A stretch of DNA of 64,000 nucleotides from positions 143,904,001-143,968,000 of the forward strand of contig NC_086097.1 of NCBI RefSeq assembly GCF_963921235.1. Direction: 5' to 3'. The position numbers and the translations under genes are program-made. Each line of letters opens with the position of its first letter. The stretch's first letter is position 1. Of this stretch, positions 1 to 63,130 are shown in pieces. The notes under the pieces are model-generated. The model was not told where the DNA came from. It did no database searches and saw only the letters and a program-made list of their open reading frames with translations. Source of the DNA: Mobula hypostoma. Its lineage: Eukaryota.

Positions 1-25
1 TTATGATCATGGCTGATCATCCAAC

Positions 26-3000
26 TCAGAACCCAGCCTTCCCTCCATACCCCCTGACCCCTGTAGCCACAAGGGCCATATCTAACTTCCTTTTAAACAT
101 AGCTAATGAACTGGCCTCAACAGTTTGCTGTGGCAGAGAATTCCACAGATTCACCACTCTCTGTGTGAAGAAGTTTTTCCTAATCTCGGTCCTAAAAGGC
201 TTCCCCTCTATCCTCAAACTGTGACCCCTCGTTCTGGACCTCCCCAACATCGGGAACAATCTTGCCGCATCTAGCCTGTCCAATCCCTTTAGGATCTTAT
301 ACGTTTCAATCAGATCCCCCCTCAATCTTCTAAATTCCAATGAGTACAAGCCCAGTTCATCCAGTCTTTCTTCATATGAAAGACCTGCCATCCCAGGAAT
401 CAATCTGGTGAACCTTCTTTGTACTCCCTCTATGGCAAAGATGTCTTTCCTCAGATTAGGGGACCAAAACTGCACACAATACTCCAGGTGTGGTCTCACC
501 AAGGCCTGGTACAACTGCAGTAGTACCTCCCTGCTCCTGTACTCGAATCCTCTCGCTATAAATGCCAGCATACCGTTCGCCTTTTTCACCGCCTGCTGTA
601 CCTGCATGCCCACTTTCAATGACTGGTGTATAATGACACCCAGGTCTCGTTGCACCTCCCCTTTTCCTAATCGGCCACCATTCAGATAATAATCTGTTTT
701 CCTATTTTTGCCACCAAAGTGGATAACTTCACATTTATCCACATTAAATTGCATCTGCCATGAGTTTGCCCACTCACCCAACCTATCCAAGTCACCCTGC
801 ATCCTCTTAGCATCCTCCTCACTGCTAACACTGCCACCCAGCTTCGTGTCATCCGCAAACTTGGAGATGCTGCATTTAATTCCCTCATCCAAGTCATTAA
901 TATATATTGTAAACAACTGGGGTCCCAGCACTGAGCCTTGCGGTACCCCACTAGTCACCGCCTGCCATTCTGAAAAGGTCCCGTTTATTCCCACTCTTTG
1001 CTTCCTGTCTGCTAACCAATTCTCCACCCACACCAATACCTTACCCCCAATACCGTGTGCTTTAAGTTTGCACACTAATCTCCTGTGTGGGACCTTGTCA
1101 AAAGCCTTTTGAAAATCCAAATATACCACATCCACTGGTTCTCCCCTATCCACTCTACTAGTTACATCCTCAAAAAATTCTATGAGATTCGTCAGACATG
1201 ATTTTCCTTTCACAAATCCATGCTGACTTGGTCCGATCATTTCACCGCTTTCCAAATGTGCTGTTATCACATCCTTGATAACTGACTCCAGCAGTTTCCC
1301 CACCACCGACGTTAGGCTAACCTGCCTATAATTCCCCGGTTTCTCTCTCCCTCCTTTTTTAAAAAGTGGGGTTACATTAGCCACCCTCCAATCCTCAGGA
1401 ACTAGTCCAGAATCTAACGAGTTTTGAAAAATTATCACTAATGCATCCACTATTTCTTGGGCTACTTCCTTAAGCACTCTGGGATGCAGACCATCTGGCC
1501 CTGGGGATTTATCTGCCTTCAATCCCTTCAATTTACCTAACACCACTTCCCTACTAACATGTATTTCACTCAGTTTCTCCATCTCACTGGGCCCTCTGTC
1601 CCTTACTATTTCTGGAAGATTATTTATGTCCTCCTTAGTGAAGACAGAACCAAAGTAATTATTCAATTGGTCTGCCATGTCCTTGCTCCCCATAATCAAT
1701 TCACCTGTTTCTGTTTGCAGGGGACCTACATTTGTCTTTATCAGTCTTTTCCTTTTTACATATCTATAAAAGCTTTTACAGTCCGTTTTTATGTTCTCTG
1801 CCAGTTTTCTCTCATAATCTTTTTTCCCCTTCCTAATTAAGCCCTTTGTCCTCCTCTGCTGAACTCTGAATTTCTCCCAGTCCTCAGGTGAGCCACTTTC
1901 TCTGGCTAATTTGTATGCTACTTCTTTGGAATTGATACTATCCCTAATTTCTCTTGTCAGCCACGGGTGCACTACCTTCCTTGATTTATTCTTTTGCCAA
2001 ACTGGGATGAACAATTGTTGTAGTTCATCCATGCAACCTTTAAATGCCTGCCATTGCATATCCACCGTCAATCCTTTAAGTGTCATTTGCCAGTCTATCT
2101 TAGCTAATTCACGACTCATACCTTCAAAGTTACCCCTCTTTAAGTTCAGAACCTTTGTTTCTGAATTAACTACGTCACTCTCCATGTTAATGAAGAATTC
2201 CACCATATTATGGTCACTCTTACCCAAGGGGCCTCTCACGACAAGATCGCTAATTAACCCTTCCTCATTGCTCAAAACCCAGTCCAGAATAGCCTGCTCT
2301 CTAGTCGGTTCCTCGACATGTTGGTTCAAAAAACCATCCCGCATACATTCCAAGAAATCCTCTTCCTCAGCACCTTTACCAATTTGGTTCACCCAGTCTA
2401 CATGTAGATTGAAGTCACCCATTATAACTGCTGTTCCTTTATTGCACACATTTCTAATTTCCTGTTTAATACCATCTCCGACCTCACTACTACTGTTAGG
2501 TGGCCTGTACACAACTCCCACCAGTGTCTTCTGCCCCTTAGTGTTACGCAGCTCTACCCATATCGATTCCACATCTTCCCGGCTTATGTCCTTCCTTTCT
2601 ATTGCGTTAATCTCTTTTTTAACCAGCAACGCCACCCCACCTCCCCTTCCTTCATGTCTATCCCTCCTGAATATTGAATATCCCTGAACGTTGAGCTCCC
2701 ATCCCTGGTCACCCTGGAGCCATGTCTCTGTGATCCCAACTATATCATAATCATTAATAACAATCTGCACTTTCAATTCATCCACCTTATTATGAATGCT
2801 CCTTGCATTGACACATAAAGCCTTCAGGCGCTCTTTTACAACTCTCTTAGCCCTTTTTAATGCTTGCCCTGGATTTGTCGGCCTGCCACTTTTACTTTTC
2901 CCCTTTGTACTTTTTGCTTCTACGCTCACTTTACACCCCTCTGTCTCTCTGCACTGGTTCCCATCCCTCTGTTGTGAACTAACCTCCTCACACCTAGCCT

Positions 3001-3040
3001 CTTTAATTTGATTCCCACCCCCCAACCATTCTAGTTTAAA
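26..3040 (-). CDS. LINE ORF2: APE endonuclease + reverse transcriptase (no AUG start; frame open from 3046)
   Basis: APE motifs CVNARS, GITETW, VYRPP, MGDFN, LDWVL, SDHN; RT motifs SPGPDG, QHGF, YLDFQKAFD, GVPQGSVLGP, FADD; CR1-type C-terminus NFFTQRVVNLWNSL. The track start at 3025 is TTG and the first Met is residue ~202. Confidence 0.95.
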   Translation of the reverse strand, partial: FKLEWLGGGNQIKEARCEEVSSQQRDGNQCRETEGCKVSVEAKSTKGKSKSGRPTNPGQALKRAKRVVKERLKALCVNARSIHNKVDELKVQIVINDYDIVGITETWLQGDQGWELNVQGYSIFRRDRHEGRGGGVALLVKKEINAIERKDISREDVESIWVELRNTKGQKTLVGVVYRPPNSSSEVGDGIKQEIRNVCNKGTAVIMGDFNLHVDWVNQIGKGAEEEDFLECMRDGFLNQHVEEPTREQAILDWVLSNEEGLISDLVVRGPLGKSDHNMVEFFINMESDVVNSETKVLNLKRGNFEGMSRELAKIDWQMTLKGLTVDMQWQAFKGCMDELQQLFIPVWQKNKSRKVVHPWLTREIRDSINSKEVAYKLARESGSPEDWEKFRVQQRRTKGLIRKGKKDYERKLAENIKTDCKSFYRYVKRKRLIKTNVGPLQTETGELIMGSKDMADQLNNYFGSVFTKEDINNLPEIVRDRGPSEMEKLSEIHVSREVVLGKLKGLKADKSPGPDGLHPRVLKEVAQEIVDALVIIFQNSLDSGLVPEDWRVANVTPLFKKGGREKPGNYRQVSLTSVVGKLLESVIKDVITAHLESGEMIGPSQHGFVKGKSCLTNLIEFFEDVTSRVDRGEPVDVVYLDFQKAFDKVPHRRLVCKLKAHGIGGKVLVWVENWLADRKQRVGINGTFSEWQAVTSGVPQGSVLGPQLFTIYINDLDEGIKCSISKFADDTKLGGSVSSEEDAKRMQGDLDRLGEWANSWQMQFNVDKCEVIHFGGKNRKTDYYLNGGRLGKGEVQRDLGVIIHQSLKVGMQVQQAVKKANGMLAFIARGFEYRSREVLLQLYQALVRPHLEYCVQFWSPNLRKDIFAIEGVQRRFTRLIPGMAGLSYEERLDELGLYSLEFRRLRGDLIETYKILKGLDRLDAARLFPMLGRSRTRGHSLRIEGKPFRTEIRKNFFTQRVVNLWNSLPQQTVEASSLAMFKRKLDMALVATGVRGYGGKAGF

Positions 3041-3966
3041 GTCACCTCAGTAGCCCCCGCTAATCTCCCTGCCAGGATATTGGTCCCCCTAGGATTTAAG
3101 TGTAACCCGTCCTTTTTGTACAGGTCACACCTGCGCCAAAAGAGGTCCCAATGATCCAAAAACTTGAATCCCTGCCCCCTGCTCCAATCCCTCAGCCACG
3201 CATTTATCCTCCACCTCATCGCATTCCTACTCTCACTGTCGCGTGGCAGAGGCAGTAATCCCGAGATTACTACCTTTGCGGTCCTTTTTCTCAGCTCCCT
3301 TCCTAGCTCCCTATATTCTTCTTTCAGGACCTCATCCCTTTTCCTACCTATGTCATTGGTACCTATATGTACCAGGACCTCTGGCTCTTCACCCTCCCAC
3401 TTCAGGATATCTTGGACACGATCAGAAATATCCCGGACCCTGGCACCAGGGAGGCAAACTACCATCCGAGTCTCTGGACTGCGTCCACAGAATCGCCTAT
3501 CTGACCCCCTTACTATCGAGTCCCCTATCACAACTGCCCTCCTCTTCCTTGCCCTACCCTTCTGAGCTACAGGGCCAGACTCTGTGCCGGAGGCAGGGCC
3601 ACTGTCGCTTCCCCCGGGTAAGCTGTCCCCTCCAACAGTACTCAAACAGGAGTACCTGTTGTTAAGGGGCACAGCTGCCGGGGTACTCCCCATCACCTGC
3701 CTTTTCCCCTTCCCCCTCCTAACCGTGACCCACTTGTCTGCCTCCTGTGGCCCCGGCGTGACCACCTGCCTTCCACTCCTCTCTATCACCTCCTCGCTCT
3801 CCCTGACCAGACGAAGGTCATCGAGCTGCAGCTCCAGTTCCGTAACGCGGTCCCTTAGGAGCTGCATCTCGATGCACTTGGCGCAGATGTAGACGTCCGG
3901 GAGGCTTGGAGACTCCAGGGCCTCCCACATCCGACACCGAGAACAGCAAACTGCCCTCACAGTCAT
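3031..3966 (-). CDS. LINE ORF1: Cys zinc finger, coiled coil, SGNH/GDSL esterase domain
   Basis: CSRC..CAKC, heptad LRDRVTELELQLDDL, VIGDSIV, HIGTNDI, DGLHLN; first ATG at 3966, matching the ATG position in the copy at 61227. Confidence 0.93.
   Translation of the reverse strand: MTVRAVCCSRCRMWEALESPSLPDVYICAKCIEMQLLRDRVTELELQLDDLRLVRESEEVIERSGRQVVTPGPQEADKWVTVRRGKGKRQVMGSTPAAVPLNNRYSCLSTVGGDSLPGGSDSGPASGTESGPVAQKGRARKRRAVVIGDSIVRGSDRRFCGRSPETRMVVCLPGARVRDISDRVQDILKWEGEEPEVLVHIGTNDIGRKRDEVLKEEYRELGRELRKRTAKVVISGLLPLPRDSESRNAMRWRINAWLRDWSRGQGFKFLDHWDLFWRRCDLYKKDGLHLNPRGTNILAGRLAGATEVTLN
3034..3040 (-). other. Candidate -1 programmed ribosomal frameshift site U_UUA_AAC
   Basis: ORF1 ends ACT TTA AAC TAG; the -1 frame TTT AAA CTA GAA TGG is ORF2. 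Confidence 0.7.
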
Positions 3967-4129
3967 AATGCCCCTCTCCTCAAATAGCAACAGAAAATGA
4001 ATGTCAAACCTTCCTCGCCTCGCCCGCTTCCGCCTAAGCCCGGTGAGCCGAAGCCCTTAAGTCTTCACTCTGCTCCCGGCTCACTCCGCCGCCCGCAAAC
4101 TACGCTGCCCGCTCTCTGAGGCTCTGTTC

Positions 4130-4185
4130 CTTTTAAATCTGCCGCGCTGCACTGCCCGACGTCACACGCCTGCGCAGTCCCGCCT
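4130..4185 (-). promoter_or_regulatory. Putative internal promoter of the CR1 5'UTR
   Basis: CpG-rich; NRF1-like TGCGCAGGCG (4167-4176), CRE-like TGACGTC (4158-4164), TATA-like ATTTAAAAG (~4130-4138). Confidence 0.4.
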
Positions 4186-4273
4186 CTCAGAAAGCCGTTG
4201 GAGAAAAAAAATAACGAAAATTTCAAAAATCTCTTTCTCGGCACTCCCACTCAGACTCTCAGACTCCTTCTTC

Positions 4274-4955
4274 GAATCAAATTGAGGTCGTTTATTGTAT
4301 CTGGTGCTTCTGATGAGGCCTCCTCTACATTGGTGTGACCTGACATAAACTGGGAGATCGCTTTGTCAAGCACCTTGGCTCCATCTGCAAAATGCAGGAT
4401 TTCCCAGTGGCCAACCATTTCAATTCCTATCCCCATTCCTGTTCTGACATGTCGGTCCATGGCTTTCTCTCTTGCCATGATGAGGCCACTCTCAGGGTGG
4501 AGGAGCAATTCATCCAGGTAGCCTCCAACCTAATGGCATGAACATCAATTTCTCCTGCCAGCAATTCTTTTCTTTTTCTTCCCCTTCCCTCCTCATCTAT
4601 TCCCCGCTCTGGCCTCTTACTACTTCTCCTCACCGGCCTATCACCTCCCTCTAGGGCCCCTCCTTCTGCTATTTCCCCAGAGTCCACTCTCCTCTCCTAT
4701 CAGGTTCCTTCTTCTCCAGCCCTTTGTCTTTTTCACCTATCACCTCCCAGCTTCTTACCTCATACTCCCTCCTTTGCTCACCTGGCTTCACCTATCACCT
4801 TCTAGCTTGTCCTCCTTCCCCTTCCCCTACCTTGTTTTTAATTCTGGCACCTTTTCCCTTCCTCTCCAGTCCTGATGAAGGGTCTCGGCCCAAAATGTCA
4901 ACTGTGTCGTTACTTCCAGAGACTTGCTGCATTCCTTAAATATTTTGTGTGTACA
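4274..4955 (+). mobile_element. Decayed Penelope-like 3' fragment (GIY-YIG end + pLTR)
   Basis: Homologous to 36975-37680; degenerate hammerhead at 4868-4903. Confidence 0.8.
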
Positions 4956-5227: not shown

Positions 5228-7495
5228 CAAAGTTCAATGTAAATGTATTATTAAAGTACATGTATGTCATCATATACAGCCCTAAGATTAATTTTCTTGT
5301 GGCCATTTAGTAAATAGAAATGAACACAATAGAATTGATGATAAAGCACACAAGACAGACGGACAAATAACCAATGTGCAAAAGACAACAAACTGCAAAT
5401 ACAAAAAGAAAATAATAATAATAATAAATAATTCAGTAATAACTATCAAGAACATGAGTTATTGAGTCCTTAAAAGTCAGTCTGTAGGTCGTGCAATCAG
5501 TTCAGTGTTGAGCTGTTCAAATTATCCTCTCTGATTCAAGGGCCTGATGGTTGATGGGTAATAACTGTTCCTAAACCTGGTGGTGTGGGTCCTGAGGCTC
5601 CTGAATTTTCTTCCTGATGGCAGCAGTGAGAAGAGAGCATGGGCTGAGTGCTATGGGTCATTGATGATGGATGCTGCTTTCATAGAAACATAGAAAACCT
5701 ACAGCACAATACAGGCCCTTCGGCCCACAAAGCTGTGCCAAACATGTCCCTACCTTAGAACTACCTAGGCTTTACCTATAGCCCTCTATTTTTCTAAGCT
5801 CCATGTAACCGTCCAGGAGTCTCTTAAAAGACCCTATCATTTCCGCCTCCACCACCGCTGCCGGCAGCACTCTCTACATAAAAAACTTACCCCTGACATC
5901 TCCCCTGTACCTGCTTACAGGCACCTTAAAACTATGCCCTCTCATGCTAGCCATTTCAGCCCTGGGGAAAAGCCTCTGACTATCCACATGATCAATGCCT
6001 CTCATTATCTTGTACACCTCTATCAGGTCACCTCTCATCCTCTGTCGCTCCAAGGAGAAAGGGCCGAGTTCACTCAACCTATTCTTATAAGGCATGCTCC
6101 CCAATCCAGGCAACATCCTTGTAAATCTCCTCTGCACACTTTCTATGGTTTCCACGTCCTTCCTGTAGTGAGGTGACCAGAACTGAGCACAGTACTCCAA
6201 GTGGGGTCTGACCAGGGTCCTTTATAGCTGCAACATTACCTCTCGGCTCCTAAACTCAATCCCACGATTGATGAAGGCCAATGCTCCATATGCTTTCTTA
6301 ACTACAGAGTCAACCTGCACAGCAGTTTTGAGTGTCCTATGGAATCGGACCCCAAGATCCCTCTGGTCCTCTACACTGCCAAGAATCTTACCATTAATGC
6401 TATATTCTGCCATCATATTTGACCTAGCAAAATGAATCACCTCATGCTTATCTGGGTTGAACTCCATCTGCCACTTCTCAGCCCAGTTTTGCATCCTATC
6501 AATGTCCCGTTGTAACCTCTGACAGCCCTCCACACTATCCACAACACCCCTAACCTTTGTGTCATCAGCAAATTTACTAACCCATTCTTCCACTTCCTCA
6601 TCCAGGTCATTTATAAAAATCACAAAGAGTAGGGGTCCCAGAACAGATCCCTGAGGCACATCACTGGCCTCCATGCAGAATATGACCCGTCTACAACCAC
6701 TCTTTGCCTTCTGTGGGCAAGCCAGTTCTAGATCAACAAAGCAATGTCCCCTTGGGTCCCATGCCTCCTTACTTTCTCAATAAGCCTTGCATGGGGTACC
6801 TTATCAAATGCCTTGCTAAAATCCATATACAGTACATCTACGGCTCTACCTTCATCAATGTGTTTAGTCACATCCTCAAAAAATTCAATCAGGTTCGTAA
6901 GGCACGACCTGCCTTTGACAAAGCCAGGCTGACTATTTCTAATCATATTATGCCTTTCCAAATGTTCACAAATCCTGCCTCTCAGGATCTTTCTCCATCA
7001 ACTTACCAACCACTGAAGTAAGACTCACTGGCCTATAATTTCCTGGGCTATCCCTACTCCCTTTCTTGACTAAGGGAACAACACCTGCAACCCTCCAATC
7101 CTCCAGACCCTCTCCCGTCCTCATTGATGATGCAAAGATCATTGCCAGAGGCTCAGCAATCTCCTCCCTCGCTTCCCACAGTAGCTTGGGGTACATCCTG
7201 TCCGGTCCCGGAGACTTATCCAACTTGATGCTTTCCAAAAGCTCCAGCACATCCTCTTCCTTAATATTTCCTGTGACAGTACTCCTTGTAAATGTGCTCA
7301 GTGGTGAGAAGGGCTTTACCAAAAATGTATCCGTTACTTCTTGTAGTTCTTTTTCTGTTCAGGGGCATTGGTATACTCATACCAGCCATGACGCAACCAG
7401 TCAATATATTCTCCACCACGTATCTATAGAAGTTTGTCAAAGATCTAGATGCGTTGCCAAACCTTGCAAGTGCCATTACAAAGAACGCATGGCAG
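5228..7495 (-). mobile_element. Rex/Babar-like LINE 3' fragment, split by a CR1 insertion
   Basis: LTNFYRYVVENILTGC motif (7261-7476); 3' part at 5228-5680 homologous to 63135-63600. Confidence 0.75.
5681..7265 (-). mobile_element. 5'-truncated, frameshifted CR1 ORF2 fragment with tail
   Basis: ORF pieces KSPGPD, YMDFSKAFD, PQGSVLGP/FADD, EYCAQFW; (catagaaa) tail at 5681. Confidence 0.92.
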
Positions 7496-15929: not shown

Positions 15930-16797
15930 TCCCTTTACTTTATACTTTATTGTCGCCAAACAATTGATACTAGAACGTAAAATCATCATAGTGATATTTG
16001 ATTCTGTGCTTTCCGCTCCCTGGATTACAAATCGATAGTAAATATTAAAAATTTAAATTATAAATCATAAATAGAAAATAGAAAAATGAAAATTAAGGTA
16101 GTGCAAAAAAACTGAGATGCAGGTCCAGATATTTGGAGGGTACGGCCCAGATCCGGGTCAGGATCCATTCAGCAGTCTTATCACAGTTGGAAAGAAGCTG
16201 TTCCCAAATCTGGCCGTACGAGTTTTCAAGCTCCTGAACCTTCTCCCGGAGGGAAGAGGGACGAAAAGTGTGTTGGTTGGGTGGGTCGTGTCCTTGATTA
16301 TCCTGGCAGCACTGCTCCAACAGCGTGCAATGTAAAGTGAGTCCAAGGATGGAAGATTGGTTTGTGTGATGTGCTGCGCTGTGTTCACGATCTTCTGCAG
16401 CTTCTTCCGGTCTTGGACAGGACAACTTCCATACCAGGTTGTGATGCACCCTAGAAGAATGCTTTGTACGGTGCATCTATAAAAATTAATGAGGGTTTTA
16501 GGGGACAGGCCAAATTTCTTTAGTTTTCTTAGAAAGTAAAGGTGCTGGTGGGCCTTCTTGGCAATGGACTCTGCTTGGTTAGACCAAGTCAGGTCATTTG
16601 TGATATTGACCCCGAGGAACTTAAAGCTTTTGACCTGTTCCACTTGCGCACCACTGATGTAAATTGGGTTGTGCGATCCACTACTCCTTCTGAAGTCAAC
16701 AACCAATTCCTTCGTCTTGCTGACATTGAGGGATAGGTTATTGTCTTCGCACCATGCCACCAGGTTCTTAATTTCCTCTCTGTACTCAAACTCATTC
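15930..16797 (-). mobile_element. Young 5'-truncated Rex/Babar-like LINE (RT C-terminus still open)
   Basis: NNLSLNVSKTKELVVDFR, FKFLGV, KKAHQHLYFLRKL, LPSGRR; AATAAA and (ataaagt) tail. Confidence 0.88.
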
Positions 16798-17107
16798 CTG
16801 ACAATATTCTTACAATTGTTTAACACCATTGAATGTACACTCAGTGACCACTTTGTTAGATACAGGAGTGGAATTGAGTGGGACCTTCTGTTGCTATAGC
16901 CCATGTTCAAGGTTTGATGTGCTTTGCATTCAGAGGTGCTCTTCTGCACATTATTGTTATTTGAGTTACTGTCACTTTTCTGTCAGCTTGAATCAGTCTC
17001 GCCATTCTTCTCTAATCTCTCTTATTAACAAGGCATTTTTGTCCACAGAACTGTCATTCACTGGATTTTTTTTTTATTTTTCACACCATTCTCTGTAAGC
17101 TCTAGAG

Positions 17108-19964: not shown

Positions 19965-22256
19965 GACAAAGGTGAAGGTATAACCTATACAAAAGGGACG
20001 AGTTACACCTGAACTCAAGGGGAATCAATATCCTTTTGGGCAGGATTACTGGAACTACAGGGAGGGTTTGCACTAGTTTGGCAGGGGAATGATAAAGTGG
20101 AGGATGGGGCAAATGGTGTAAATGTATATGCAGCATGCAGAGAGACTGTGGGGAAAGACAGACCGTGGAAAGGGGCATCGTTGCAGTTGGATGGAATGAA
20201 ATGTGTCTATTTTCATGACGGAAGTATCAGGAACAAGGGCAATGAGCTTAGAGAATGGGTCAGTATATGGAACTACAACATTGTTGCCATTACAGAGGCT
20301 TGGCTATCACCAGGGCAGGAATGGCTCCTGGGTGTTCTGGGCTTTGGATGTTTCAAAAGGGACAGGGAGAGATGTAAAAGAGGTGGGGGAGTGACATTGC
20401 CAATCAGGGAGAACATCGCTGTTTCAGAAAGGGAGGATGCTGTAGAAGGATTGACTACTGAGACAGTACGGATAGGAGTCAGATACAAGAGAGCAAACAC
20501 TCTAGACCCACCAATAGCAATAGAGATACTTAGGTGAACATCACAAGGCTGATTTTGTAGGAAATTATGATGCAATTAGGCAGGAATTTTGGAGTGTAAA
20601 TTCATGATGGATGTGCACAACAGAAATGTGGAGATTGTCTAGGGAGCACCTGGATGGGGTCTGAATAGGTTTGTCCCATGGAGGCAGGCAAAGGATGGTG
20701 GGGTGAAGGAACCATGATTGGCAACAGATGTGCAACATCTAGTCGGGAGAAAGAAAGGAGTGTGCTTAAGGCTTAGGAAGCAAGGATCAGAATCACTAGA
20801 GAGTTACAAAATATCCAGGAAGGAACTTAAAAATAAACTTAGGGGAGCTCGAAGCAGTCATGAAAAGGGCTTGGCAAGAAAGATTAAGGAAAATCCCAGG
20901 GCATTCGACACATATGTGAAGAATAAGAGGATGACTAGAGTGAGGGTAGGACTGATTAGGGATAAAAGAGGAAACGTGTCTGCAGACAGAGGAGGGAGGG
21001 GAGGTCCCTAATGAATATTTGCTTCAGTATTCACCAGTGAGAGGGACCTTGATGAATGTGAGGTCAGCGTAGTGAGCAATGTGAGGCTAATATGCTGGAT
21101 CATATCAATGTTAAGGAAAGAAGATGTGCTGAAACTTCTGAAAAACATTAGGATAGGTAAGTCCCCAGGGCCAGATGAGAATTATAGATAGATGAGAGTC
21201 ACAGTAGTGCTGGGCAAACTACTGGAAATGAATCTTAGGCACTGGATATACGAGCATTTGGAGAAGCACAGTCTGACTATGGATAGCCAGCATGGTCTTG
21301 TGAGGGACAGGTTGTACCTCATGAACTGATTGAATTCTTCGAGGAAGTGACATAACAAATTGATGACGGCAGAGCAGTGGATGTAGTGTATGTGGATTTT
21401 AGTCAGGTGTTCGACATGGCTCTCATGGAAGACGCACTCAGAAAATCAGGAGGCATGGGACCCTGAGAAAAATGGATTCAGAACTAGCTTGCCCACAAAA
21501 GGCAGGAGGTGGTAGTTGATGGAATGCATCCTGCCTGGAGGCTGGTGACCAGTGTTGCCCCACAGGGATCTGATCTGGGAGCCCTTCCATTTCTGATTTT
21601 TATAAACAACTTGGTTGAGGTGGGTTAATGAGCGTGCGGGTAACATGAAGGCTGGTGGTGTCGTGGATAGTGCAGTGGTTGTTGCAGGTTACAACAGGAC
21701 ATTGATAGGATGCAAAGCTGGGCAGAGTGGTGGCAGATAAAGTTCAATCTGTGGTGATTCACACTGGAAAGTCCAAATTGAAGTAGAATACAGTGTTAAT
21801 GGCATGATTCTTAACAATGTGGAGGAATGGAGGGATCTTGTGGTTCACACCCATAGCTTGCAGCACAAGCTGATAAGGTTGTTAAGGCGTATGTTATGTT
21901 GGCTTTCATTAGTCAGGGGATTGAATTCAAGAGACGCAGCTCTATAAAATTCTGGTTAGATCATATTTGATTTATTGTGTTCAGTTCTGGTCACCTCATT
22001 ATCCGAAAGATGTGGAAGCTTTAAATAAGGACGGAGGAGATTTACTGGGATGCTGCTTGGATTATAGAACATGTGTTATGAGGATAGGATGAGCCAGCTC
22101 GGGCTTTTCTCTCTGGAGTGAAGGAGGATGTGAGGTGACTTGATAAATGTATATCAGATGATAAGAGGCGTGGATACAGTGGACAGCCAAGGGGCTTTTT
22201 TCCCCCAGGGTAGAAGTGACTAATATGACGTGGCAAATTTTTAAGGTGATTGGAGG
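19965..22256 (+). mobile_element. Decayed, internally deleted CR1 (ORF1 end through ORF2)
   Basis: ORF1 end DELHLN..EGLH*, APE VAITEAW/RGGGV, RT remnants. Confidence 0.88.
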
Positions 22257-35441: not shown

Positions 35442-37277
35442 CTCCACTCCCTCCGCGCTAATCCTAACCTCACTATAAAACCAGCCGATAAGGGGGGTGC
35501 TGTTGTAGTCTGGCGTACTGACCTCTACCTTGCTGAGGCACAGTGACAACTCGCGGATACCTCCTCTTATTTATCCCTCGATCGTGACCCCACTAAGGAG
35601 CACCAGGCCATTGTCTCCCACACCATCACCGACTTTATCCGCTCAGGGGATCTCCCATCCACTGCTACCAACCTTATAGTTCCCACACCCCGCACTTCCC
35701 GTTCCTACCTTCTACCCAAGATCCACAAACCTGCCTGTCCTGGCCGACCTATTGTCTCAGCTTGCTCCTGCCCCACCAAACTCGTTTCTGCATACTTCGA
35801 CACGGTTTTATCCCCTCTTGTTCAATCCCTTCCTACCTATGTTCGTGACACTTCTCACGCTCTTAAACTTTTCGATGATTTTAAGTTCCCTGGCCCCCAC
35901 CGCTTTATTTTCACCATGGATGTCCAGTCCTTATATACTTCCATCCCCCATCAGGAAGGTCTCAAAGCTCTCCGCTTCTTTTTGGATTCCAGACCTAACC
36001 AGTTCTCCTCTACCACCACTCTGCTCTGTCTAGCAGAATTAGTCCTTACTCTTAATAATTTCTCCTTTGGCTCCTCCCACTTCCTCCAAACTAAAGGTGT
36101 AGCTATGGGCACCCGTATGGGTCCTAGCTATGCCTGCCTTTTTGTTGGGTTTGTGGAACAATCTATGTTCCAAACCTATTCTGGTATCTGTCCCCCACTT
36201 TTCCTTCGCTACATCGACGACTGCATTGGCGCTGCTTCCTGCACGCATGCTGAGCTCGTTGACTTCATTAACTTTGCCTCCAACTTTCACCCTGCCCTCA
36301 AGTTTATCTGGTCCATTTCCAACACCTCCCTCCCCTTTCTAGATCTTTCTGTCTCTGTCTCTGGAGACAGCTTATCCACTGATGTCTACTATAAGCCTAC
36401 TGACTCTCACAGCTATCTGGACTATTCTTCTTCTCACCCTGTCTCTTGCAAAAATGCCATCCACTTCTCGTGATTCCTCCGTCTCCGCCTCATCTGCTCT
36501 CAGGATGAGGCTTTTCATTCCAGGACGAGGGAGATGTCCTCTTTTTTTAAAGAAAGGAGCTTCCCTTCCTCCACTATCAACTCTGCTCTCAAATGCATCT
36601 CCCCCATTTCATGCACATCTGCTCTCACTCCATCCTCCTGCCACCCCACTAGGAATAGGATTCCCCTTGTCCTCACCTACCACCCCACCAGCCTCCGGGT
36701 CCAACATATTATTCTCCGTAACTTCCGCCACCTCCAACGGGATCCCAGCACTAAGCACACCTTTCCCTCCCCCCCCCCTTCTGCTTACCACAGGGATTGC
36801 TCCCTACACGACTCCTTTGTCCATTCGTTCCCCCCATCCCTCCCCACTGATCTCCCTCCTGGCACTTATCCTTGTAAGCGGAACAAGTGCTACACATGCC
36901 CTTACACTTCCTCCCTTACCACCATTCAGGGCCCCAGACAGTCCTTCCAGGTGAGGCGACACTTCACCTGTGAGTCGGCTAGGGTGATATATTGCGTCTG
37001 GTGCTCCCGATGCGGCCTTCTATATATTGGCGAGACCGGACGCAGACTGGGAGATCGTTTCACTGAACACCTACGCTCTGTCCGCCAGAGAAAGCAGGAT
37101 CTCCAACTGGCCACACATTTTAATTCCACGTCCCATTCCCATTCTGATATGTCAATCCACAGCCTCCTCTACTGTAAAGATGAAGCCACACTCAGGCTGG
37201 AGGAACAACACCTTATATTCCGTCTGGGTAGCCTCCAACCTGATGGCATGAACATCGACTTCTCTAACTTCCGCTAA
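35442..37277 (+). pseudogene. PLE RT + GIY-YIG endonuclease frame with two in-frame TGA stops
   Basis: IKPADKG, MDVQSLY, GVAMG, RYIDD, CKRNKCYTC linker, VIY..YIGET; TGA at 35544 and 36471. Confidence 0.92.
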
Positions 37278-44109: not shown

Positions 44110-46535
44110 ATAAGACCATAGGACAGTAAAGCAGAATGAGGCCATTCGGCCCATCAACACTGATACACTATTTCATCATGGCTACTCCATTTTCCCTCTC
44201 AAACCCATTCTCCTACCTTCTCCCCGTAACCTTTCATGCCTTGACTAATCACAAACCTATTAACCTCTGCTTTAAATACATCAAATGACCTGGCCACCAC
44301 AGCCATCTGTGGCAATGAATTCCACAAATCCACCAACCCCTAGCTAAATAAATTTCTGTTCTAAATGAACATCCGTCTAATCTGAGGATGTGCCCTTTGG
44401 TACTAGACACCCCCACTATAGGAAACATAATTTCTACTGAGCCCTTTCAACATTCAGTAGGTTTCAATGAGATACCCTCCCCCCCCCAACGATTCTTCTA
44501 AATTCTACAAGTAAAGGCACAAAGCCATCAAATGCTCCTCATGCAATAATCATTTAATCCCCAGAATCATTCTTGTGAAACTCCTCTGAAACTTCTCCAA
44601 TGTCAGGACATCCTTTCTTAAATAAGGTGCCCAAAACTTCTCATAATATTCCAAGTGAGGCCTCATCAATGCCTCATAAAACCTCGGCATTACATTGTTT
44701 CTTTTATATTCTAATTCTCTCAAAATGAATGCTAACATTGCCTTGCCTTCACTTCTACTGACTCAAACTGCAAGTTAAACTTTAAAGAATCCTACACAAG
44801 GACTACTAATTCCCTTTGCATTTGGATTTCTGAATTTTTTTCCCCATTTAGAAAATAGTCTATGCTCTTATTCCTTTTACCACAAGTGCATGACCATACA
44901 CTTCCCAGCACTGTACTCTATCTGCCACTTCTTTGTCTATTCTTTGAATCTGTCTAAGTATTTCTGCAGCCTACCTGCCACTCCATGTATCTTTGGGATG
45001 TATCTATTCTGTGCCTTCTGATTGCCCACCCCCACCCGCCCCCCCGCCCGAAACTCCAGCCATTGATTTTCTGCCATCATCCTGCTATTTTCCCTTTCAG
45101 TCATCTTTGGCCAGCTCCTCTCCCATGCCTCTGCAATTCCCTTTACATCTGACTTCTCCCTCTGAAATTTCCGGGTGAATCTTATCATATCATGGTCACT
45201 GCCGCCTGAGTGTTCCTTTACCTTAAGCTCCCTAATCATCACTGTCTCCTGAGTGTTCTTTTACCTTAAGCTCCCTAATCAAATCCAGTTCATTATACAA
45301 CACTCAATTCTGAAAAGCCTTTCCCCTTGTGGACTCAACCACAAACTGTTCGAAAAAGCCATCTCATAGGAATTCCACAAATTCTCTCTCTTGACATCCA
45401 GTACCAATCTGATTTTTCCAGTCTACCTGCATATTGAAATCCTATGACTATTGTACCATAGGGCTTTGACATGCCTTTTCTATCTCCCATTGTAATTTGT
45501 AGCCCACATCCTGGCTACTGTCCCGAAGCCTGTATCTAACTCCCATCACGGTTTGTTTACCCTTACAGTTTCTTAACTTACTCCTTCCGATCCTATGTCA
45601 CTTCTTTCTAAGGACTTGATTTCATTTTTTACCCATAGAACCATGGCACCTTCTCTGCCTGCCTGCCTTTATTTTTTGCTACAATGTGTATACTTGGTTG
45701 TTAAGCTTCCAACTATAATCTTCTTCAAGCCATGACTCAGTGATGCCCATTATGTCATAACTGCCAATATTTAACTGCACTACAAGATCATCTACCCTAT
45801 TCCACATACTGCGTGCTTTGAAATATATGCACCTTCAATCCTGTATCCATCACCCTTTTGGATTTTGTCACCATGTTACACTGCAACTCATCTCACTGAC
45901 TGTAATTTTGCCCTGTCATCTGCCTGTCCTGCCTGACAACTTCACTACACATTGCATCTGCAGCCACATCACCCCAGTTCCCAACTCTGTCAAATTAATT
46001 TAAACCCTCCCTACCCACAAGGACATTGGTCCCTCCAATGTTCAGGTGTAACTCATCCATTTTGTACAGAACATACTTCGGCCAGAAGAGATCCCAATGA
46101 TCCAGAAATCTGAAGTCCTGCCCCCTGCACCAGTTCCTCAGCCACACATCTGTCTGCCAACTTATCCTATTCTTAGCTTCACTGGCACCTAGCAGTGGCA
46201 GCAATCCATAGATTACTATTTACTTTTCAACTTTTTACCTAACTGACTAAATTCTCTCTTCAGGACCTCCTCCCTTTTCCTACCTATGTAATTTGGTGCC
46301 AGTATGTACCAAGACCACCAGATGCTCACCATCCCCCTTCAGAAAGTCATGGACCCAATCTGAAATGTCACTGACCTTGGCACTTGGGAGGCAACATACC
46401 ACCTGGGTATCTCTTTCACATCCACAGAACCTCGTGTCCACTCCCCTAACTATGGTATCCCCTATCACTACTACACTCCTCTTCCCCCTTCTTCCCTTCT
46501 GAGCCACAGCACCAAACTCAGTGCCAGGGACCCGG
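44110..46535 (-). mobile_element. Decayed, internally deleted CR1 (ORF1 esterase to 3' tail)
   Basis: VIGDTIVRG, FLDHWD..LHLN..GLN*, GSDHDM, RPHLEY; (taagacca) tail. Confidence 0.9.
45196..45281. repeat. 43-bp direct tandem duplication
   Basis: tcactg..taccttaagctccctaatca occurs twice. Confidence 0.85.
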
Positions 46536-49870: not shown

Positions 49871-50954
49871 TGTTCAGCATTATCTCCTTGTTTTTATATT
49901 CTATTCCCCTTGAAATAAATGCCAACATTGCATTTGCCTTCACAGACTCCAACTGTAAATTAACCTTCTGGTAGTCTTGCACGAGGACTCCTAAGCCCAC
50001 TTGCCCTTCTGATGTTTGAATTTCCTCTCCATTTAGATAATAGTCTGCACTATTGTTCCTTTTATGAAAATTAATTATCAGAATTAATTATCATACATTT
50101 CCCAACACTTCATTCCATCTGCCATATTTCTGCCCATTCTTCCTCAGCACTACCTACCCCTCCACCCATCTTTGTATCATCTGCAAACTTTTCCACAAAG
50201 CCATCAATTCCACCATCTAAATCAATGTGAAAAGTAGCAGTCCCAATACTGACCCCTAAGGAACACCACTAGTTCCTGGCAACCAACCAGAAAAGGCCCC
50301 CTTTATTCCCACTCACTGCTTCTTGCCGGTCAGCTATTCCTCTATCCATGCTAGTACCTTTCTGTAACACCATAGGATTTTACCTTGTTAAGCAGCCTCA
50401 TGTGAGGCGCTTTATCAAATACCTTCTGAAAATCCAAATAAATAACATCCACTGCCTCTCTTTTGTCCACCCTGCTTGCTACTTCCTCGAAGAACTCTAA
50501 CAGATATGTCAGGCAAGATTTCCCTTCACAGAAACCATGTGACTTTGACTTACTTAATCATTAGTCTCCAAATAAACCAAAACCTCATCCTTAATAATAG
50601 ACTCCAACACTTTCCCAACCACTGAAGTTTGGCTAACTGCCCTATAATTTCCCTTCTTTTGCCTTCCTTATTTCTTAAAGAGTGGAGTGACATTTGCAAT
50701 TTTCCAGTCTTCCCAGTCGATGCCAGAATCAAATAATTCTTGAAAGATCATGACCAATGCATCCATTATCTCTTCAGCAACCTCTTCAGGACTCTGGGAT
50801 GTAAGGTGGCGTATCCACCTTAAGACTTTTCACTTTGCCCTGTACATTTTCCGTTGTTGTAGCAATGGCACTCATGGTCCTCTGTCATACAGCTAATATC
50901 TTGCACAGTAAAGACTTCTGTGGGACATGCCTATCTTATGCCTTGTGAACAACT

Positions 50955-51525
50955 GGAATTCTGCAGATGCTGGAAATTCAAGCAACATACATCAAAGTTG
51001 CTGGTGAACGCAGCAGGCTAGGCAGCATCTGTAGGAAGAGGTGCAGTCGACGTTTCAGGCCGAGACCCTTCGTCAGGACTAACTGAAGGAAGAGTGAGTA
51101 AGGGATTTGAAAGTTGGAGGGGGAGGGGGAGATGCAAAATGATAGGAGAAGACAGGAGGGGGAGGGATAGAGCCGAGAGCTGGACAGGTGATAGGCAAAA
51201 GGGGATACGAGAGGATCATGGGACAGGAGGCCCAGAGAAGGAAAAGGGGGAGGGGGGGGTAAAAACCCAGAGGATGGGCAAGGGGTATAGTCAGAGGGAC
51301 AGAGGGAGAAAAAGGAGAGAGAAAGAAAGAACGTGTGTATATAAATAAATAACGGATGGGGTACGAGTGGGAGGTGGGGCATGAGCGGAAGTTAGAGAAG
51401 TCGATGTTCATGCCATCAGGTTGGAGGCTACCCAGACGGAATATAAGATGATGTTCCTCCAACCTGAGTGTGGCTTCATCTTTACAGTAGAGGAGGCCGT
51501 GGATAGACATATCAGAATGGGAATA
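50955..51525 (-). mobile_element. Young Penelope 3' fragment/pLTR
   Basis: Near-identical to 37140-37710. Confidence 0.9.
51045..51080 (-). ncRNA. Minimal type I hammerhead ribozyme (intact core)
   Basis: Identical to the motif at 35007-35042. Confidence 0.8.
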
Positions 51526-52096
51526 AAATCTAAGATTGCCTGTCCCCTAGACGGCTTGAGCACAGGCTGCTCTAAAAAACCATCTCGTAGGCATTCAACA
51601 AATTCTCTCTCTTGCAATCCAACAGCAACCTGATTTTCCCAATCCTCTGCATATTGAAGTCCCCTATTACAATCGTGACATTACCCTTATAACATGCCTT
51701 CTCCAGCACCCTTTGCAACCTCAACCACATCTTGGTTACTATTTGGAGTCCTATATATGATTCCCATAAAGGTTTTTTCACCCTTGCAGTTTCTCAACTC
51801 CACCCACAAAGATTTGACATTCTCTGACCCTATCTCACCTCTTTCTAAAGATGTAATTCCATCTCTTATCAACAGAGCTACACCACCGCCTATGCCTTCC
51901 TGCCTGTCCTTTGATACAAAGTATATCCTTTGATGTTAAGCTCCCAACTATAGCCTTCTTTCAGCCATGACTCAGTGATGCCCACAATGTCATACTGACC
52001 AATCAGTAATTGCACCACGAGTTCATCCATCTTATTCCAAATGCTACACGCATTTAAATGCAGCGCCTTCAGTCTTGCATTCTTCACCATTTAGAA

Positions 52097-52628
52097 ACAT
52101 AGAAAATAGGTGCAGGAGTAGGCCATTCGGCCCTTCGAGCCTGCACCGCCATTCAGTATGATCATGGCTGATCATCCAACTCAGAACCCCACCCCAGCCT
52201 TCCCTCCATATCCCCGATCCCTTTAGCCACAAGGGCCATATCTAACTCCCTCTTAAATATAGCCAATGAACTGGCCTCAACTGTTTCCTGTGGCAGAGAA
52301 TTCCACAGATTCACCACTCTCTGTGTGAAGAAGTTTTTCCTAATCTTAGTCCTAAAAGGCTTCCCCTTTATCCTCAATCTGTGACCCCTCGTTCTGGACT
52401 TCCCCAACATCGGGAACAAGCTTCCTGCATCTAACCTGTCCAATCCCTTTAGGATTTTATACATTTCAATCAGATCCCCTCTCAATCTTCTAAATTCCAA
52501 CGAGTGTAAGCCTAGTTCATCCAGTCTTTCTTCATATGAAAGTCCTGCCATCCCAGGAATCAATCTGGTGAACCTTCTTTGTACTCCCTCTATGGCAAGA
52601 ATGTCTTTCCTCAGATTAGGGGACCAAA
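52097..52628 (-). mobile_element. Young 5'-truncated copy of the same CR1 family as 1-4273
   Basis: High identity to 1-470; 3' stem-loop GGTGCAGG..CCTGCACC; candidate TSD atttagaa (52089-52096, 52629-52636). Confidence 0.92.
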
Positions 52629-53175
52629 ATTTAGAATTTTGTCTTGTGATACAAATTAACTCTTTGCTCTGTTTACAGTAGTACCCAATCACTGATTTGT
52701 CCTTCCTTAGATTCATATTACATATTACATCATCTACTTGTAAACCTGCTGGCTCATCCTCAGCTCTATCATATTGGTTCCTGTGCCCCTGCCATATTAG
52801 TCTAAACCACTCCCAACAGCTCCAGCAAACCTACCCACAAGGATATTGGTCCGTCTCAGATTTATGCAACCCCTCCATTTTGGACAGATAACATCTGCCC
52901 CAGAAGAGGTCCCAATGATCCAGAAATCTGAATCCCTGCCCCCTGCTCCAATTCTTCAGCCACGCATTTATCCGCCACCTCATTCTATTCCTAACCTCTC
53001 TGTCACATGGTACAGGCAGCAATCCGGAGATTACTACCCTTGAGGTCCTGCTTCTCAGCTTCCTTCCTAACTCCCTGTATTCTATTTTCAGGAGCTCCTC
53101 CCCTTTTCTTCCTATGTCGTTGGTACCAATATGTACCACAACCTCTGGCTACTCACCCTCCCTTTTCAGGATATT

Positions 53176-53985
53176 CATGCACAACAGTCTCTAGAGTTTA
53201 CAGTAAATGGTGTGATAGGCAAAAAAAATCCAGTGAGTGAAATGAGAGGATTTAGAGGAGAATAACCAGACTGATTGAAGATGACAGAATCAGATTTATT
53301 ATCACCGGCATGTGACATGAAATTTGTTAGTTTAGCAGCAGCAGTTCAATGCAATACAAAATCTAGCAGAGAGAGAAAAAAAAAATAAAATAAAACATAA
53401 TAATAAACAAGTAATTCAATTACATACATTGAATAGATTTTAAAAATGCACAAAAATAGAAATACTGTATATTATAAAAGTGAGGTAGTGTTCAAAGCTT
53501 TAATGTCCATTTAGGAATCGGATGGCAGAGGGGAAGGAGCTGTTCCTGAATCGCTGAGTGTGTGCCTTCAGGCTTCTGTATCTCCTACCTGATGGTAACA
53601 GTGAGAAAAGGGCATGCCCTGGGTGCTGGAGGTCCTTAATAATGGACGTTGCCTTTCTGAGACACTGCTCCCGAAAGATGTCCTGGGTGCTTTGTAGGCT
53701 AGTGCCCAAGATGGAGCTGACTAGATTTACAAACTTCTGCAGCTTCTTTTGATCCTGTGCAGTAGCCCCTCCATACCAGACAGTGATGCGGCCTGTCAGA
53801 ATGCTCTCCACAGTACAACTATAGAAGTTTTTGAGTGTATTGAAGACCAAGATAACGCAAATAACCATGCATTACAACAGTGGTGTGCAGAAGAGCAGCT
53901 TTGAATGCACACCACATTGAACCTTGAAGTGGTAGGTTACAGCAGCAGAAAATCATGAACATAAAGTGGCTACTTTATTCAGTAC
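53176..53985 (+). mobile_element. Tc1-family remnant interrupted by a Rex/Babar fragment (53287-53842, minus strand)
   Basis: TTVSRVYSKW remnant and AAAGTGGC repeat; insert encodes NFYSCTVESILTG..LPSGRRYRSL. Confidence 0.75.
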
Positions 53986-60949: not shown

Positions 60950-63130
60950 AGAGAGGTCGTTTGTTGGTGACACAGCACCAAGGTTAAAAGGAGCTCCGGC
61001 GCTTTCGGCTCTTTTTGGCAGGCTGCAATCAGCACGCGGCCAATAAAAAGAAGGGAGGAGTAAGTGGAACCATCAAGGTTGGAGTCGGCAAGAGTTAGAG
61101 TGGTCTGGCTTTGGCTCAGCAGGCTTAGGCGAGAACAAGTTTGGGCAAAAGCACAGGCGGAGGTTTGAAGCAAGTAAGTAGTTTCTATTAAGTTTTTGTT
61201 GTTAGTATATAACTAGTGTACGGAGAATGAGCCCAGAGTTAGTGATTTGTTCCGTGTGTGAGATGTAGGAAATCTGGGAGACCTTCAGTCTCCTTGATAA
61301 CTACATCTGCATGAAATGCACTGAGCTGCAGCTCCTTAGAGACTGTGTTAAGGAACTGGAGATGCAGCTCAATGACCTTGAGTTCTTATGGAAAAGTAAG
61401 GTGGCGATAGTTAGGAACTACAGGAAGGCAGTTCCCCTAAGTTGCAGGAGGCAGTACCTGGGTGACTGTTAGGAGCAGGAAAGAGTTTAAGCAACCAGCG
61501 CAGAGTGCCATTCCCCTCTATAATAAATGTATTGCTTTGGATAATGTGGGAGACGACCTACCACAGGAAAGCCACAGCGACCATGTCTCCAGCACTGGGT
61601 CTGGCTCTGTGGCTCAGAAAGGAAGGTGGAAAGTGGGAAAGGGGAGTGCTGTGGTGATAGGGGGTCCTATGATGCTGAGATACATCCTAGGATGTGCTGG
61701 GACACATCATTAGTGACGTAACTTGGGGCCATCGTGCGTTTCGGGCCTTCAACATCAGATACTCTCGCCCAGGCGAGTCAACCAGGGTTGATCAGGCCCT
61801 GGCTTGTGTCCAACCAGCTTTGGTCTAAGGGTCACACCTCTTGATCCATAGCCACCTGGAGGCTCACTCAACAACCCCTGTGACAGTCCACTTGGCTCTT
61901 TTCATTGCAGCCTTTATTATGCCAAGGAGAGAGTAGGTTCTGCGGAGCGAGCAGTCAGGAAAACCTCAACACCCCACCTCTATAGTCTCACATCGTGCCA
62001 TCCTCCCCTGTCTCTGACACTGCCTTGCCAGCTCCTAGCACTTGGCTTTCTTACACTCAAGCACCTCCTCAATCTGGTCTTCCCAAAGTACTGGCAGTCC
62101 TACCGTGACCACCTGCTTTGAGGTTTCTGATAGATTGACGATGTCAGGCCCCAGTGGTGATGATGTAATAAAGTCAGGGAACTCTAACTGCTTGCCAAGA
62201 TTGACTTTCAGTTGCCAGTCAGATGTTGTGGCGAGAAAGCCTGCTGATGATCTGAGCTGAGGCTGGGGTTGACAAAGGCTATGGGCTCTCTGTGTTGGTG
62301 GAGCTGCTTACAGTTGTTAATGGCCAAGGAGGCATTCTCTGCTACTACTTTCATCATCTGGTTATGAGGCCAGCGGTAGCGTTCTTCTCCCAAGGCTTTT
62401 GAGGATGTGTTCCAGGGTCTGTCTGCCAGAACAGAGAGGACATGATGGCACCTCACACTTGCGCCAAGTAAAAAGGTTCGCTGGGCTAGGCAGGACATCA
62501 GGGACAACAAACACAGCCTGGATCATGAACTCAATGCACTAAGGTTCTGCCTGCTAGATGTTGGACCAGATTTTTCCCTTTAGCGCACCTTTGCACCTTG
62601 TGCAAGCTCCCAGCTGCCCTATTCCTTTAACTAGAAGAGTAGAAAGCAGGTTCTACAAACGTGAAAGAGACACCCGGATGGTATGTTGCCTCTCAGGTCG
62701 AGGGTCAGGGATGTCTCGGATGGGGTCCATGGCATTCGAGAGGGGAAGGGTGAGCAGCCAGAAGACATGGCACAGATTGGTACCAATGACTTCAGTAGGT
62801 AAAGGGAGGAGGTCCTGAAGAGAGAGGGAGTTTGGCAGAAAGGTGAAGAGTAGGACCTCAGGGGTAGTGATCTCTGGATTGCTGACTGTGCCATGTGCCA
62901 TTGAGGGTAAGGATATGATGAACGGGTGACTGAAGTACTGGTGTGGCAGCAGGGTTTCAATGTCGACGTCATTGGGACAGGTTACACCTGAACCCGAGGG
63001 GGACCAATATCCTTGTGGATGGGTTTCCCAGAGCTGTGGGGAAGGGCTTAAACTAATTTGGCAAGGGGTTGGGAACCTGGGTGATAGGGTTAAGGACGGG
63101 GCAGTAGCTATACTGTACAACTAGATGCAG
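60950..63130 (+). mobile_element. 5' part of a decayed CR1 (5'UTR, ORF1, ORF1/ORF2 junction) interrupted at ~61670-62620
   Basis: MSPELVICSVC, YICMKC..QLLRD, AVVIG, MVCCL, IGTND, GLN*. Confidence 0.88.
61672..62560 (-). mobile_element. Hero-like (R2 group, restriction-like endonuclease) non-LTR fragment
   Basis: KALGEERYRWPHNQ, then DWQLKVNLG..FP..GPDIV..LPVLWED..KKAK..IEVG (degenerate PD-(D/E)xK RLE). Confidence 0.8.

Follow-up and report, generated by a model that had tools for sequence, protein, structure and literature searches.

The window analysed here is a stretch of 64,000 nucleotides (nt) of the Mobula hypostoma genome (assembly GCF_963921235.1, contig NC_086097.1, positions 143,904,001 to 143,968,000 of the forward strand). 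At its beginning lies, on the minus strand, an intact retrotransposon of the CR1 type, a dominant long interspersed nuclear element (LINE) of many vertebrate genomes. Our subject is the junction between its two open reading frames (ORF1 and ORF2), where a putative site of programmed −1 ribosomal frameshifting immediately precedes the ORF1 stop codon. The features of the element on which the argument depends are as follows (aa, amino acids; UTR, untranslated region; APE, apurinic/apyrimidinic endonuclease).

1-4282, minus strand: full-length intact CR1-type LINE, its 5' end shared with several copies and its 3' end just past window position 1
3967-4282, minus strand: 5' UTR of 316 nt, without AUG
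3031-3966, minus strand: ORF1, 311 aa, from the AUG at 3966 to the UAG at 3033-3031, ending Thr-Leu-Asn-stop
3085-3531, minus strand: SGNH/GDSL esterase domain (PF13472, E 5.4e-16)
3047-3049, minus strand: TGA closing the −1 frame upstream; the two frames overlap by at most 13 nt before the ORF1 stop
3034-3040, minus strand: slippery heptamer U_UUA_AAC in the 0 frame, within the overlap, as read from the sequence
3031-3033, minus strand: ORF1 stop UAG, directly 3' of the heptamer
3027-3029, minus strand: out-of-frame AUG, closed after 8 codons
3014-3023, minus strand: G-run (G6-U-G3) beginning 10 nt 3' of the heptamer, candidate stimulator
26-3046, minus strand: ORF2 frame, 1006 aa from stop to stop; the open frame reaches position 26
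2810-3034, minus strand: AUG-free linker between the shift and the first Asn of the endonuclease, 75 codons of the ORF2 frame
2200-2827, minus strand: APE domain, ends approximate (PF03372 Exo_endo_phos; L1 endonuclease structures, E ~8e-7)
2420-2422, minus strand: first in-frame AUG of ORF2, inside the endonuclease, aligned to Met143 of the L1 endonuclease
698-1351, minus strand: reverse transcriptase domain (PF00078 RVT_1, E 4.3e-33)

Judged by its domains and its tail, the element is a CR1-type LINE. Elements of this class are marked by a 3' UTR hairpin and a short tandem-repeat tail instead of poly(A), and both are present at the 3' end of the element, which lies about 70 nt past window position 1 and was read in locus L130. 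The other attributes of the class were likewise found, namely an APE endonuclease followed by a reverse transcriptase, and an ORF1 with zinc finger, zipper and SGNH esterase. In ORF1, a Cys-rich, zinc-finger-like N-terminus is followed by a predicted coiled coil or leucine zipper, read from the sequence only, and then by the esterase; the ORF1 profile matched the ZfL2-1 ORF1 esterase structure 4C1B with E 2.7e-46. With the endonuclease, a single-sequence search of solved structures returned no match, whereas the profile search did match L1 endonucleases. ORF2 is 44-45% identical to the bird-type elements L073 and L082, and the closest ORF1 protein among the matches listed is a devil-ray record (98% identity). 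The same domain order of ORF1 and ORF2 is described, in the accessible part of PMC4120745, for CR1 subgroup 7, with its type IVB ORF1 (zinc finger/leucine zipper plus esterase).

The element belongs to a young, high-copy family that is copying now. From the 3.48-Gb genome that contains the window, 1265 candidates were obtained, and the best 30 of the 40 that were scored, comprising the window copy and 29 others, were taken as the family sample. These 29 copies are 98.6-99.6% identical to the window element in long alignments; nine of them begin at 4282 and six more at 4273-4278, so that 15 reach 4273-4282. No target-site duplication was established for the window copy. Polymorphism within the family mostly reflects decay after insertion and is uninformative.

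ORF1 ends with ACT TTA AAC TAG, and the frame of ORF2 is −1 relative to that of ORF1. The initial annotation of this DNA had described this arrangement together with the TGA at 3049-3047, the out-of-frame AUG at 3029 and a predicted ORF1-ORF2 fusion of 1313 aa, and every one of these elements was confirmed in the sequence. No canonical in-frame X_XXY_YYZ site other than U_UUA_AAC occurs in ORF1 or ORF2, and the chance of finding a canonical heptamer at a fixed in-frame position is 0.3% under the codon usage of the element. Heptamer, stop and frame are identical in all 30 fetched copies of the family, and the junction is therefore not a copy-specific indel. Within ORF2 (29-3034, minus strand), one would expect about three canonical in-frame heptamers in about 1000 codons and none is present, which hints weakly at avoidance.

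ORF2 was said to lack an AUG until residue ~202, well inside the APE domain. The position inside the domain holds, and the residue number becomes 209 in the stop-to-stop frame, or 205 if the count begins at the shift. Aligned by profile to solved L1 endonucleases, this first Met lies past the residues matching L1 N14, E43 and Y115, which we take to be catalytic-site residues of the endonuclease, and it is found at the same place in 29 of the 30 family copies. Accordingly, the window's family has no usable AUG for ORF2 upstream of the endonuclease catalytic residues. When the AUG-less part of ORF2 is compared with that of the ray family L114, the residue is kept at 50 of 80 aligned codons, and 27 of these 50 have a changed codon. 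By this codon comparison, purifying selection acts on the part of ORF2 that lies upstream of its first Met, and this part is hence translated. Given the lack of a usable start codon combined with a conserved slippery sequence, the ORF2 enzyme is most likely made by a −1 slip.

Conservation of the junction was examined across further CR1 families. All 21 junctions chosen for comparison at the DNA level carry UUUAAAC or GUUAAAC (TTTAAAC in 20, GTTAAAC in one, with TTA and AAC each in 21 of 21), followed by TAG in 16 and TAA in five. The background usage is 26 TTA among 146 Leu codons and 16 AAC among 56 Asn codons. As a control, the invariant Leu of the esterase motif DGLHL uses six codons in 17 junctions (TTA twice), and its His and Asp use both of their codons. 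By these counts, taken from junctions related by descent, the heptamer is conserved at the nucleotide level beyond the need of the protein.

The heptamer with its stop was also found in 19 of 20 copies of a second young ray family and in 10 of 20 copies of an old decayed family, both from the window's genome, and in all seven parsed regions of further ray families (eight were fetched). A metagenome scan used a pattern placed within the esterase, at a distance from the ORF1 terminus. It yielded 43 loci, of which 19 had no match to the ORF1 end, six ran off the locus and 18 were readable. Thirteen of the readable loci run in frame into N TTA AAC and a stop; among the others, three have the heptamer beside an indel, one has lost the stop and one has no heptamer. 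Linkers of 37, 42, 47, 48, 52, 65, 70, 75 and 88 codons separate the heptamer from the endonuclease, all of them without a stop in the −1 frame, which is also open over 305 nt in one more family. Across linkers this varied, the downstream ORF lies in the −1 frame without interruption after the slippery site, and the comparison with L114 shows it to be functionally constrained in the window's family.

In four of the 20 copies of the second ray family (L052, L063, L051 and L065), ORF1 and ORF2 share one frame owing to an indel, which appears to lie in the G-run immediately upstream of the heptamer, and the DNA itself encodes a fusion until a later stop. These copies probably reflect decay, and they are a possible source of fused protein. 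The same junction is present in L071, L072, L074, L075, L091 and L108, whose ORF1 is 31-40% identical to that of the ray; all six fall outside the vertebrate-named cluster of the tree. The accessible text of PMC4120745 reports the esterase-type ORF1 only in vertebrate groups.

At the protein level, the terminal Leu-Asn encoded by the heptamer is similarly widespread. Of 120 listed ORF1 homologues, 79 could be scored, that is, had the esterase DGxH motif 20-34 residues from the end; in the other 41 the motif pattern was missing or the protein was truncated or extended. Seventy-four of the 79 end in Leu-Asn-stop, and the remaining five in Ile-Asn (one), Val-Asn (one), Gly-Asn (two) or another sequence (one). 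The named hosts include rays, sharks, coelacanth, frogs, turtles, a snake, lizards and a hummingbird. A more divergent set consisted of 150 representatives of clusters at 50% identity, found with a search profile that included both terminal columns; 112 of them have the motif and 103 of these end 20-40 residues after it. The 103 ends comprise 49 Leu-Asn, 11 Gly-Asn, three Lys-Asn and three other Asn ends, along with 37 that are not Asn. The distance between Leu-Asn and DGxH varies from 25 to 39 residues, which ties the pair to the stop rather than to the esterase fold.

The residue in front of the terminal pair is informative as well. The residue before Leu-Asn is one restricted to codons ending in A or G in only two of 69 distinct tails, compared to 19% at neighbouring positions, and the residue before Gly-Asn is Gln in eight of 11 tails; the tails are related by descent, and p-values for this residue accordingly overstate the case. 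The pattern apparently fits U_UUA_AAC in the former tails and G_GGA_AAC in the latter, and the Lys-Asn ends would fit A_AAA_AAC, all such swaps in distant homologues being read at the protein level. In a quick tree of the esterase core (109 rows, tails removed), a single clade holds the Gly-Asn and Lys-Asn ends and, nested within it, a Phe-Leu-Asn end; in another clade 12 of 17 rows have Lys-Asn about 10 residues before the stop, which would likewise fit A_AAA_AAC. A distant ORF1 subclade (P0195, P0112, P0161, P0213, P0234 and P0240) has ends of the form Phe-Phe-x, or Gly-Phe near the end; slippery sites of the G_GGU_UUU or U-run kind could underlie them. Two proteins filed under bacterial names, P0021 and P0274, are close relatives of the window CR1 ORF1 (60%) and ORF2 (40%), and are probably animal DNA in bacterial records.

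We consider it likely that programmed −1 frameshifting at U_UUA_AAC makes a minor ORF1-ORF2 fusion beside an abundant ORF1 protein (ORF1p). Ribosomes would initiate at the AUG of ORF1, which no other AUG precedes in the RNA, and for most of them translation would end at the UAG, yielding the 311-aa ORF1 protein. A minority would slip back by one base on U_UUA_AAC, with tRNA-Leu and tRNA-Asn re-pairing from UUA AAC to UUU AAA, would read CUA next and would produce the 1313-aa fusion of ORF1 with its esterase, the linker, the endonuclease and the reverse transcriptase, in a Gag-Pol-like manner. The stimulator might be the adjacent stop, through slow termination, together with an unstructured element of five G residues (G5) 10 nt downstream. 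Frameshifting had been proposed in the initial annotation, and the comparisons support it strongly, by heptamer codons that are fixed across diverged families, by apparent exchanges for other canonical heptamers in distant homologues (at the protein level) and by the lack of an AUG before the endonuclease in the window's family. We infer from the sequence both the slippage and the fusion protein with its ratio.

Several findings weigh against this reading, and they concern the sample of junctions, the stimulator and the start codons of other families. The junctions are related by descent, and their counts are thus not independent; six of the 21 were located via the heptamer itself, although four of these had first been found by in-frame reading. 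The endonuclease Asn is AAT in 11 of 11 cases, and some synonymous sites are fixed with no known signal, so that single fixed synonymous sites do occur. Among the scorable cluster representatives, 37 of 103 have no terminal Asn. No DNA for the Gly-Asn and Lys-Asn classes was found in five scans of viral contigs; a scan of prokaryote genomes for the same DNA gave eight loci, none with an ORF2 match. Furthermore, no natural protein with esterase and reverse transcriptase in one frame was present among four matches, nor among 120 listed of 879.

The search for a stimulator adds to this side of the balance. The initial annotation had named the adjacent stop codon and the downstream G-rich tract as possible stimulators, with pseudoknot and G-quadruplex prediction as a check. 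The tract proved to be conserved at a fixed spacing of 10 nt: each of the positions +10 to +14 is G in 18-19 of 19 junctions, with GGGGG there in 17 of 20. By contrast, the −1 frame encodes varying residues on either side of G5, with Leu, Gln, Lys or Arg preceding it and Gly, Asp, Glu, Ala or Val following. A conserved structure was not supported. In 18 folded junctions no local structure is favoured, with fold z-scores from −2.7 to +1.5 and a value near 0 for the window, and no first stem is shared across junctions by a folding method that does not model pseudoknots; a stem-loop or pseudoknot 5-9 nt downstream of the heptamer is thus not supported as the stimulator. A G-quadruplex was likewise discarded, as the three-tier motif occurs in none of 20 junctions and, by a simple pattern, the two-tier motif in seven of 20. 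That the G-run pairs with the 3' end of its own element is rejected for now: the window junction and its own 3' UTR form a duplex of −20 kcal/mol, but 41 of 368 G-matched windows are as good, own UTRs are no better than foreign ones in a 10 x 10 junction-UTR matrix (p 0.34-0.86), and the complementary strand sits in the UTR's own hairpin. In L071 (about 1239-1262, −31.6 kcal/mol) and L082 (about 1500-1520), the own 3' UTR pairs best with the coding stretch that immediately precedes the endonuclease SDH motif; this stretch is a moderate partner in L073 and nothing special in the window or L074, and the result may be due to chance. Within the frameshift reading, the most likely role of G5, although a tentative one, is that of a candidate protein-binding site rather than a pseudoknot.

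The start codons of other families bear directly on the best of the alternatives, an L1-like or stop-start process of termination-reinitiation. Ribosomes would restart just past the UAG and make a separate ORF2 protein, and the conserved bases would serve termination and reinitiation. L1 ORF2 is made in this manner, and its reinitiation tolerates the loss of its AUG. The codon just after the stop is AUG in three of 20 junctions, bird-type loci in which this AUG lies two bases after the stop, and GUG or UUG in five more; one further junction has an overlapping stop-start. An ORF2-frame AUG that overlaps or adjoins the ORF1 stop is thus present in four of 20 junctions and absent from the window family. 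An in-frame Met occurs in the linker in seven of the 14 junctions with a parsed endonuclease start. The second ray family has a linker AUG at +48 nt, and a linker Met opens many ORF2 predictions from turtles, lizards and birds, although this set favours proteins that begin with Met. Hence an in-frame AUG before the endonuclease, which the initial annotation had regarded as fatal to frameshifting, is lacking in the window's family and occurs in several other CR1 families. The open −1 linker is also compatible with reinitiation, and so is the in-frame UUG at 3025 of the window, which had been named as a possible ORF2 start and turned out not to be a conserved start across junctions. However, 12 of the 20 junctions have no AUG, GUG or UUG at the codon after the stop, and reinitiation leaves unexplained the fixed X_XXY_YYZ, the U-ending codon before it and the Gln-Gly-Asn and Lys-Asn alternatives. 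We therefore regard it as unlikely to be the sole explanation of the junction. Because the elements with readable junctions all keep the heptamer, reinitiation may coexist with frameshifting in some lineages; AUG reinitiation is impossible in the window's family.

It is considerably less probable that Leu-Asn is a requirement of the ORF1 C-terminus with codons inherited by chance, and that ORF2 is translated from a non-AUG codon of the linker by leaky or internal initiation. The window linker does contain the near-cognate codons UUG (3025), GUG (2929) and CUG (2827), the codon at 2929 (minus strand) is AUG in the ORF2 frame in copies from one assembled sequencing run of another organism, and some synonymous sites are conserved elsewhere. 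A protein requirement, however, would not account for the fixation of two minority codons, TTA and AAC, in 21 of 21 junctions, nor for a dipeptide that tracks the stop over tails of differing length and changes to Gly-Asn and Lys-Asn, and the alignment to 4C1B stops at profile position 320, short of the Leu-Asn columns 323-324.

The two remaining alternatives are very improbable. Mobilisation in trans, with the window family not translating its full ORF2 and relying on a sister family with a linker AUG, is suggested by the sister ray family with its in-frame AUG and its near-identical 3' tail (a very similar 3' UTR), but the window ORF2 is intact for 1006 codons with purifying selection upstream of its first Met, and the sister family also keeps the heptamer (19 of 20 copies). 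A spliced or subgenomic RNA that uses the AG of UAG as acceptor to bring in an upstream AUG has in its favour the pyrimidine-AG of the window junction, yet no polypyrimidine tract precedes the junction and the acceptor fails in the families with UAA, where there is no AG (five of 21 junctions). In assembled contigs of four sequencing runs, none of 15 listed of 126 joints had canonical splice ends, and none of 12 listed of 25 indels lay at the heptamer, which speaks neither for nor against any of these readings.

Programmed −1 frameshifting at the CR1 junction would have parallels among known systems. Retroviral gag-pol and pro-pol and nidovirus ORF1a/1b use the same heptamer in the same −1 geometry and fuse a structural or accessory ORF to a polymerase ORF at a low ratio. 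Unlike these, CR1 is a non-LTR (long terminal repeat) retrotransposon, has no pseudoknot 5-9 nt downstream and places the 0-frame stop directly after the heptamer. By this comparison, the junction is like the retroviral and nidoviral sites but fails the classical requirement for downstream structure. In the accessible part of a 2016 review, U_UUA_AAC, G_GGA_AAC, A_AAA_AAC and G_GGU_UUU are listed as the most shift-prone heptamers and G_UUA as an equine arteritis virus variant (PMC5009743). [quoted passage not shown] CR1 shares an unstructured homopolymer-like motif at the 10-nt spacing, but the motif is G-rich and the heptamer differs from that of nsp2; the likeness is one of spacing only, and we treat it as a lead, not a test.

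Among retroelements, the LTR retrotransposon gag-pol and PEG10 have pol in the −1 frame behind a classical heptamer, as CR1 does (accessible part of PMC5009743), but they are of the Ty3/gypsy type, whereas the window element, with its esterase ORF1, is a LINE of the APE type. Mammalian L1 resembles CR1 in its bicistronic ORF1-ORF2 RNA and low ORF2 output (same part of PMC5009743); its ORFs, however, are separated by a spacer and give separate proteins, whereas the CR1 frames overlap at the slippery site and ORF2 has no AUG. As far as the accessible text of that review goes, a frameshift has been proposed in HeT-A gag, HeT-A and TART are the non-LTR cases, and CR1 is not mentioned; for Paramecium LINE groups 1-2, "+1 frameshifting or re-initiation" has been suggested (accessible part of PMC5405496). 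In both cases recoding was suggested from the ORF layout, in other clades and either as +1 or within gag, and the accessible parts of the two accounts name no conserved −1 heptamer at an ORF1 stop.

The literature on CR1 itself appears, where accessible, to leave the mode of ORF2 translation unsettled. The word "frameshift" does not occur in the main texts of PMC3905857, on the esterase structure, and PMC4120745; PMC4255032 uses it only for decayed copies, and the accessible part of PMC5006619 mentions frameshifting only for DIRS-1. A full-text literature search found no paper on a CR1 frameshift, the founding CR1 papers being outside its reach, and an earlier remark on the ORF1/ORF2 overlap in those papers is possible, although we lean against it.

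The window contains other elements besides the CR1 described here.

35547-37277, plus strand: reverse transcriptase and, after it, a weak GIY-YIG match, interrupted by one stop; Penelope-like element
16161-16982, minus strand: open frame with a PF09004 (ALKBH8_N) match, probably repeat-derived
5778-7268, 44211-46525 and 49875-53178, minus strand: broken CR1-like fragments of several ages
20196-22217 and 61227-63053, plus strand: broken CR1-like fragments of several ages

Four decayed CR1 fragments show a worn heptamer and stop at approximately 46004-45995 (minus), 63045-63057 (plus), 20070-20080 (plus) and 52800-52790 (minus), and in three of the four a G-rich run follows.

Taken together, the junction comparisons indicate that the CR1 junction is a real, deeply conserved feature. 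A much broader model would be that −1 frameshifting is ancestral and general in esterase-type CR1, both in jawed vertebrates and in animals more distant from them, that U_UUA_AAC, G_GGA_AAC and A_AAA_AAC have replaced one another as the slippery site, and that stimulation requires no RNA structure but comes from the adjacent stop and from G5 bound to a host protein or to ORF1p; in this full form we consider it doubtful. The 30-nt junction is directly testable in a standard reporter. If frameshifting occurs as proposed, CR1 would provide a U_UUA_AAC frameshift that is both conserved and chromosomal and whose stimulator is unusual in being structure-free, and, if the stimulator is a protein, a protein-stimulated frameshift in a chromosomal retroelement that yields a Gag-Pol-like esterase-endonuclease-reverse transcriptase protein. 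The active CR1 enzyme would then be the 1313-aa fusion, carrying the esterase and the multimerising parts of ORF1, and the understanding and annotation of CR1 particles and of ORF2 boundaries would change accordingly.

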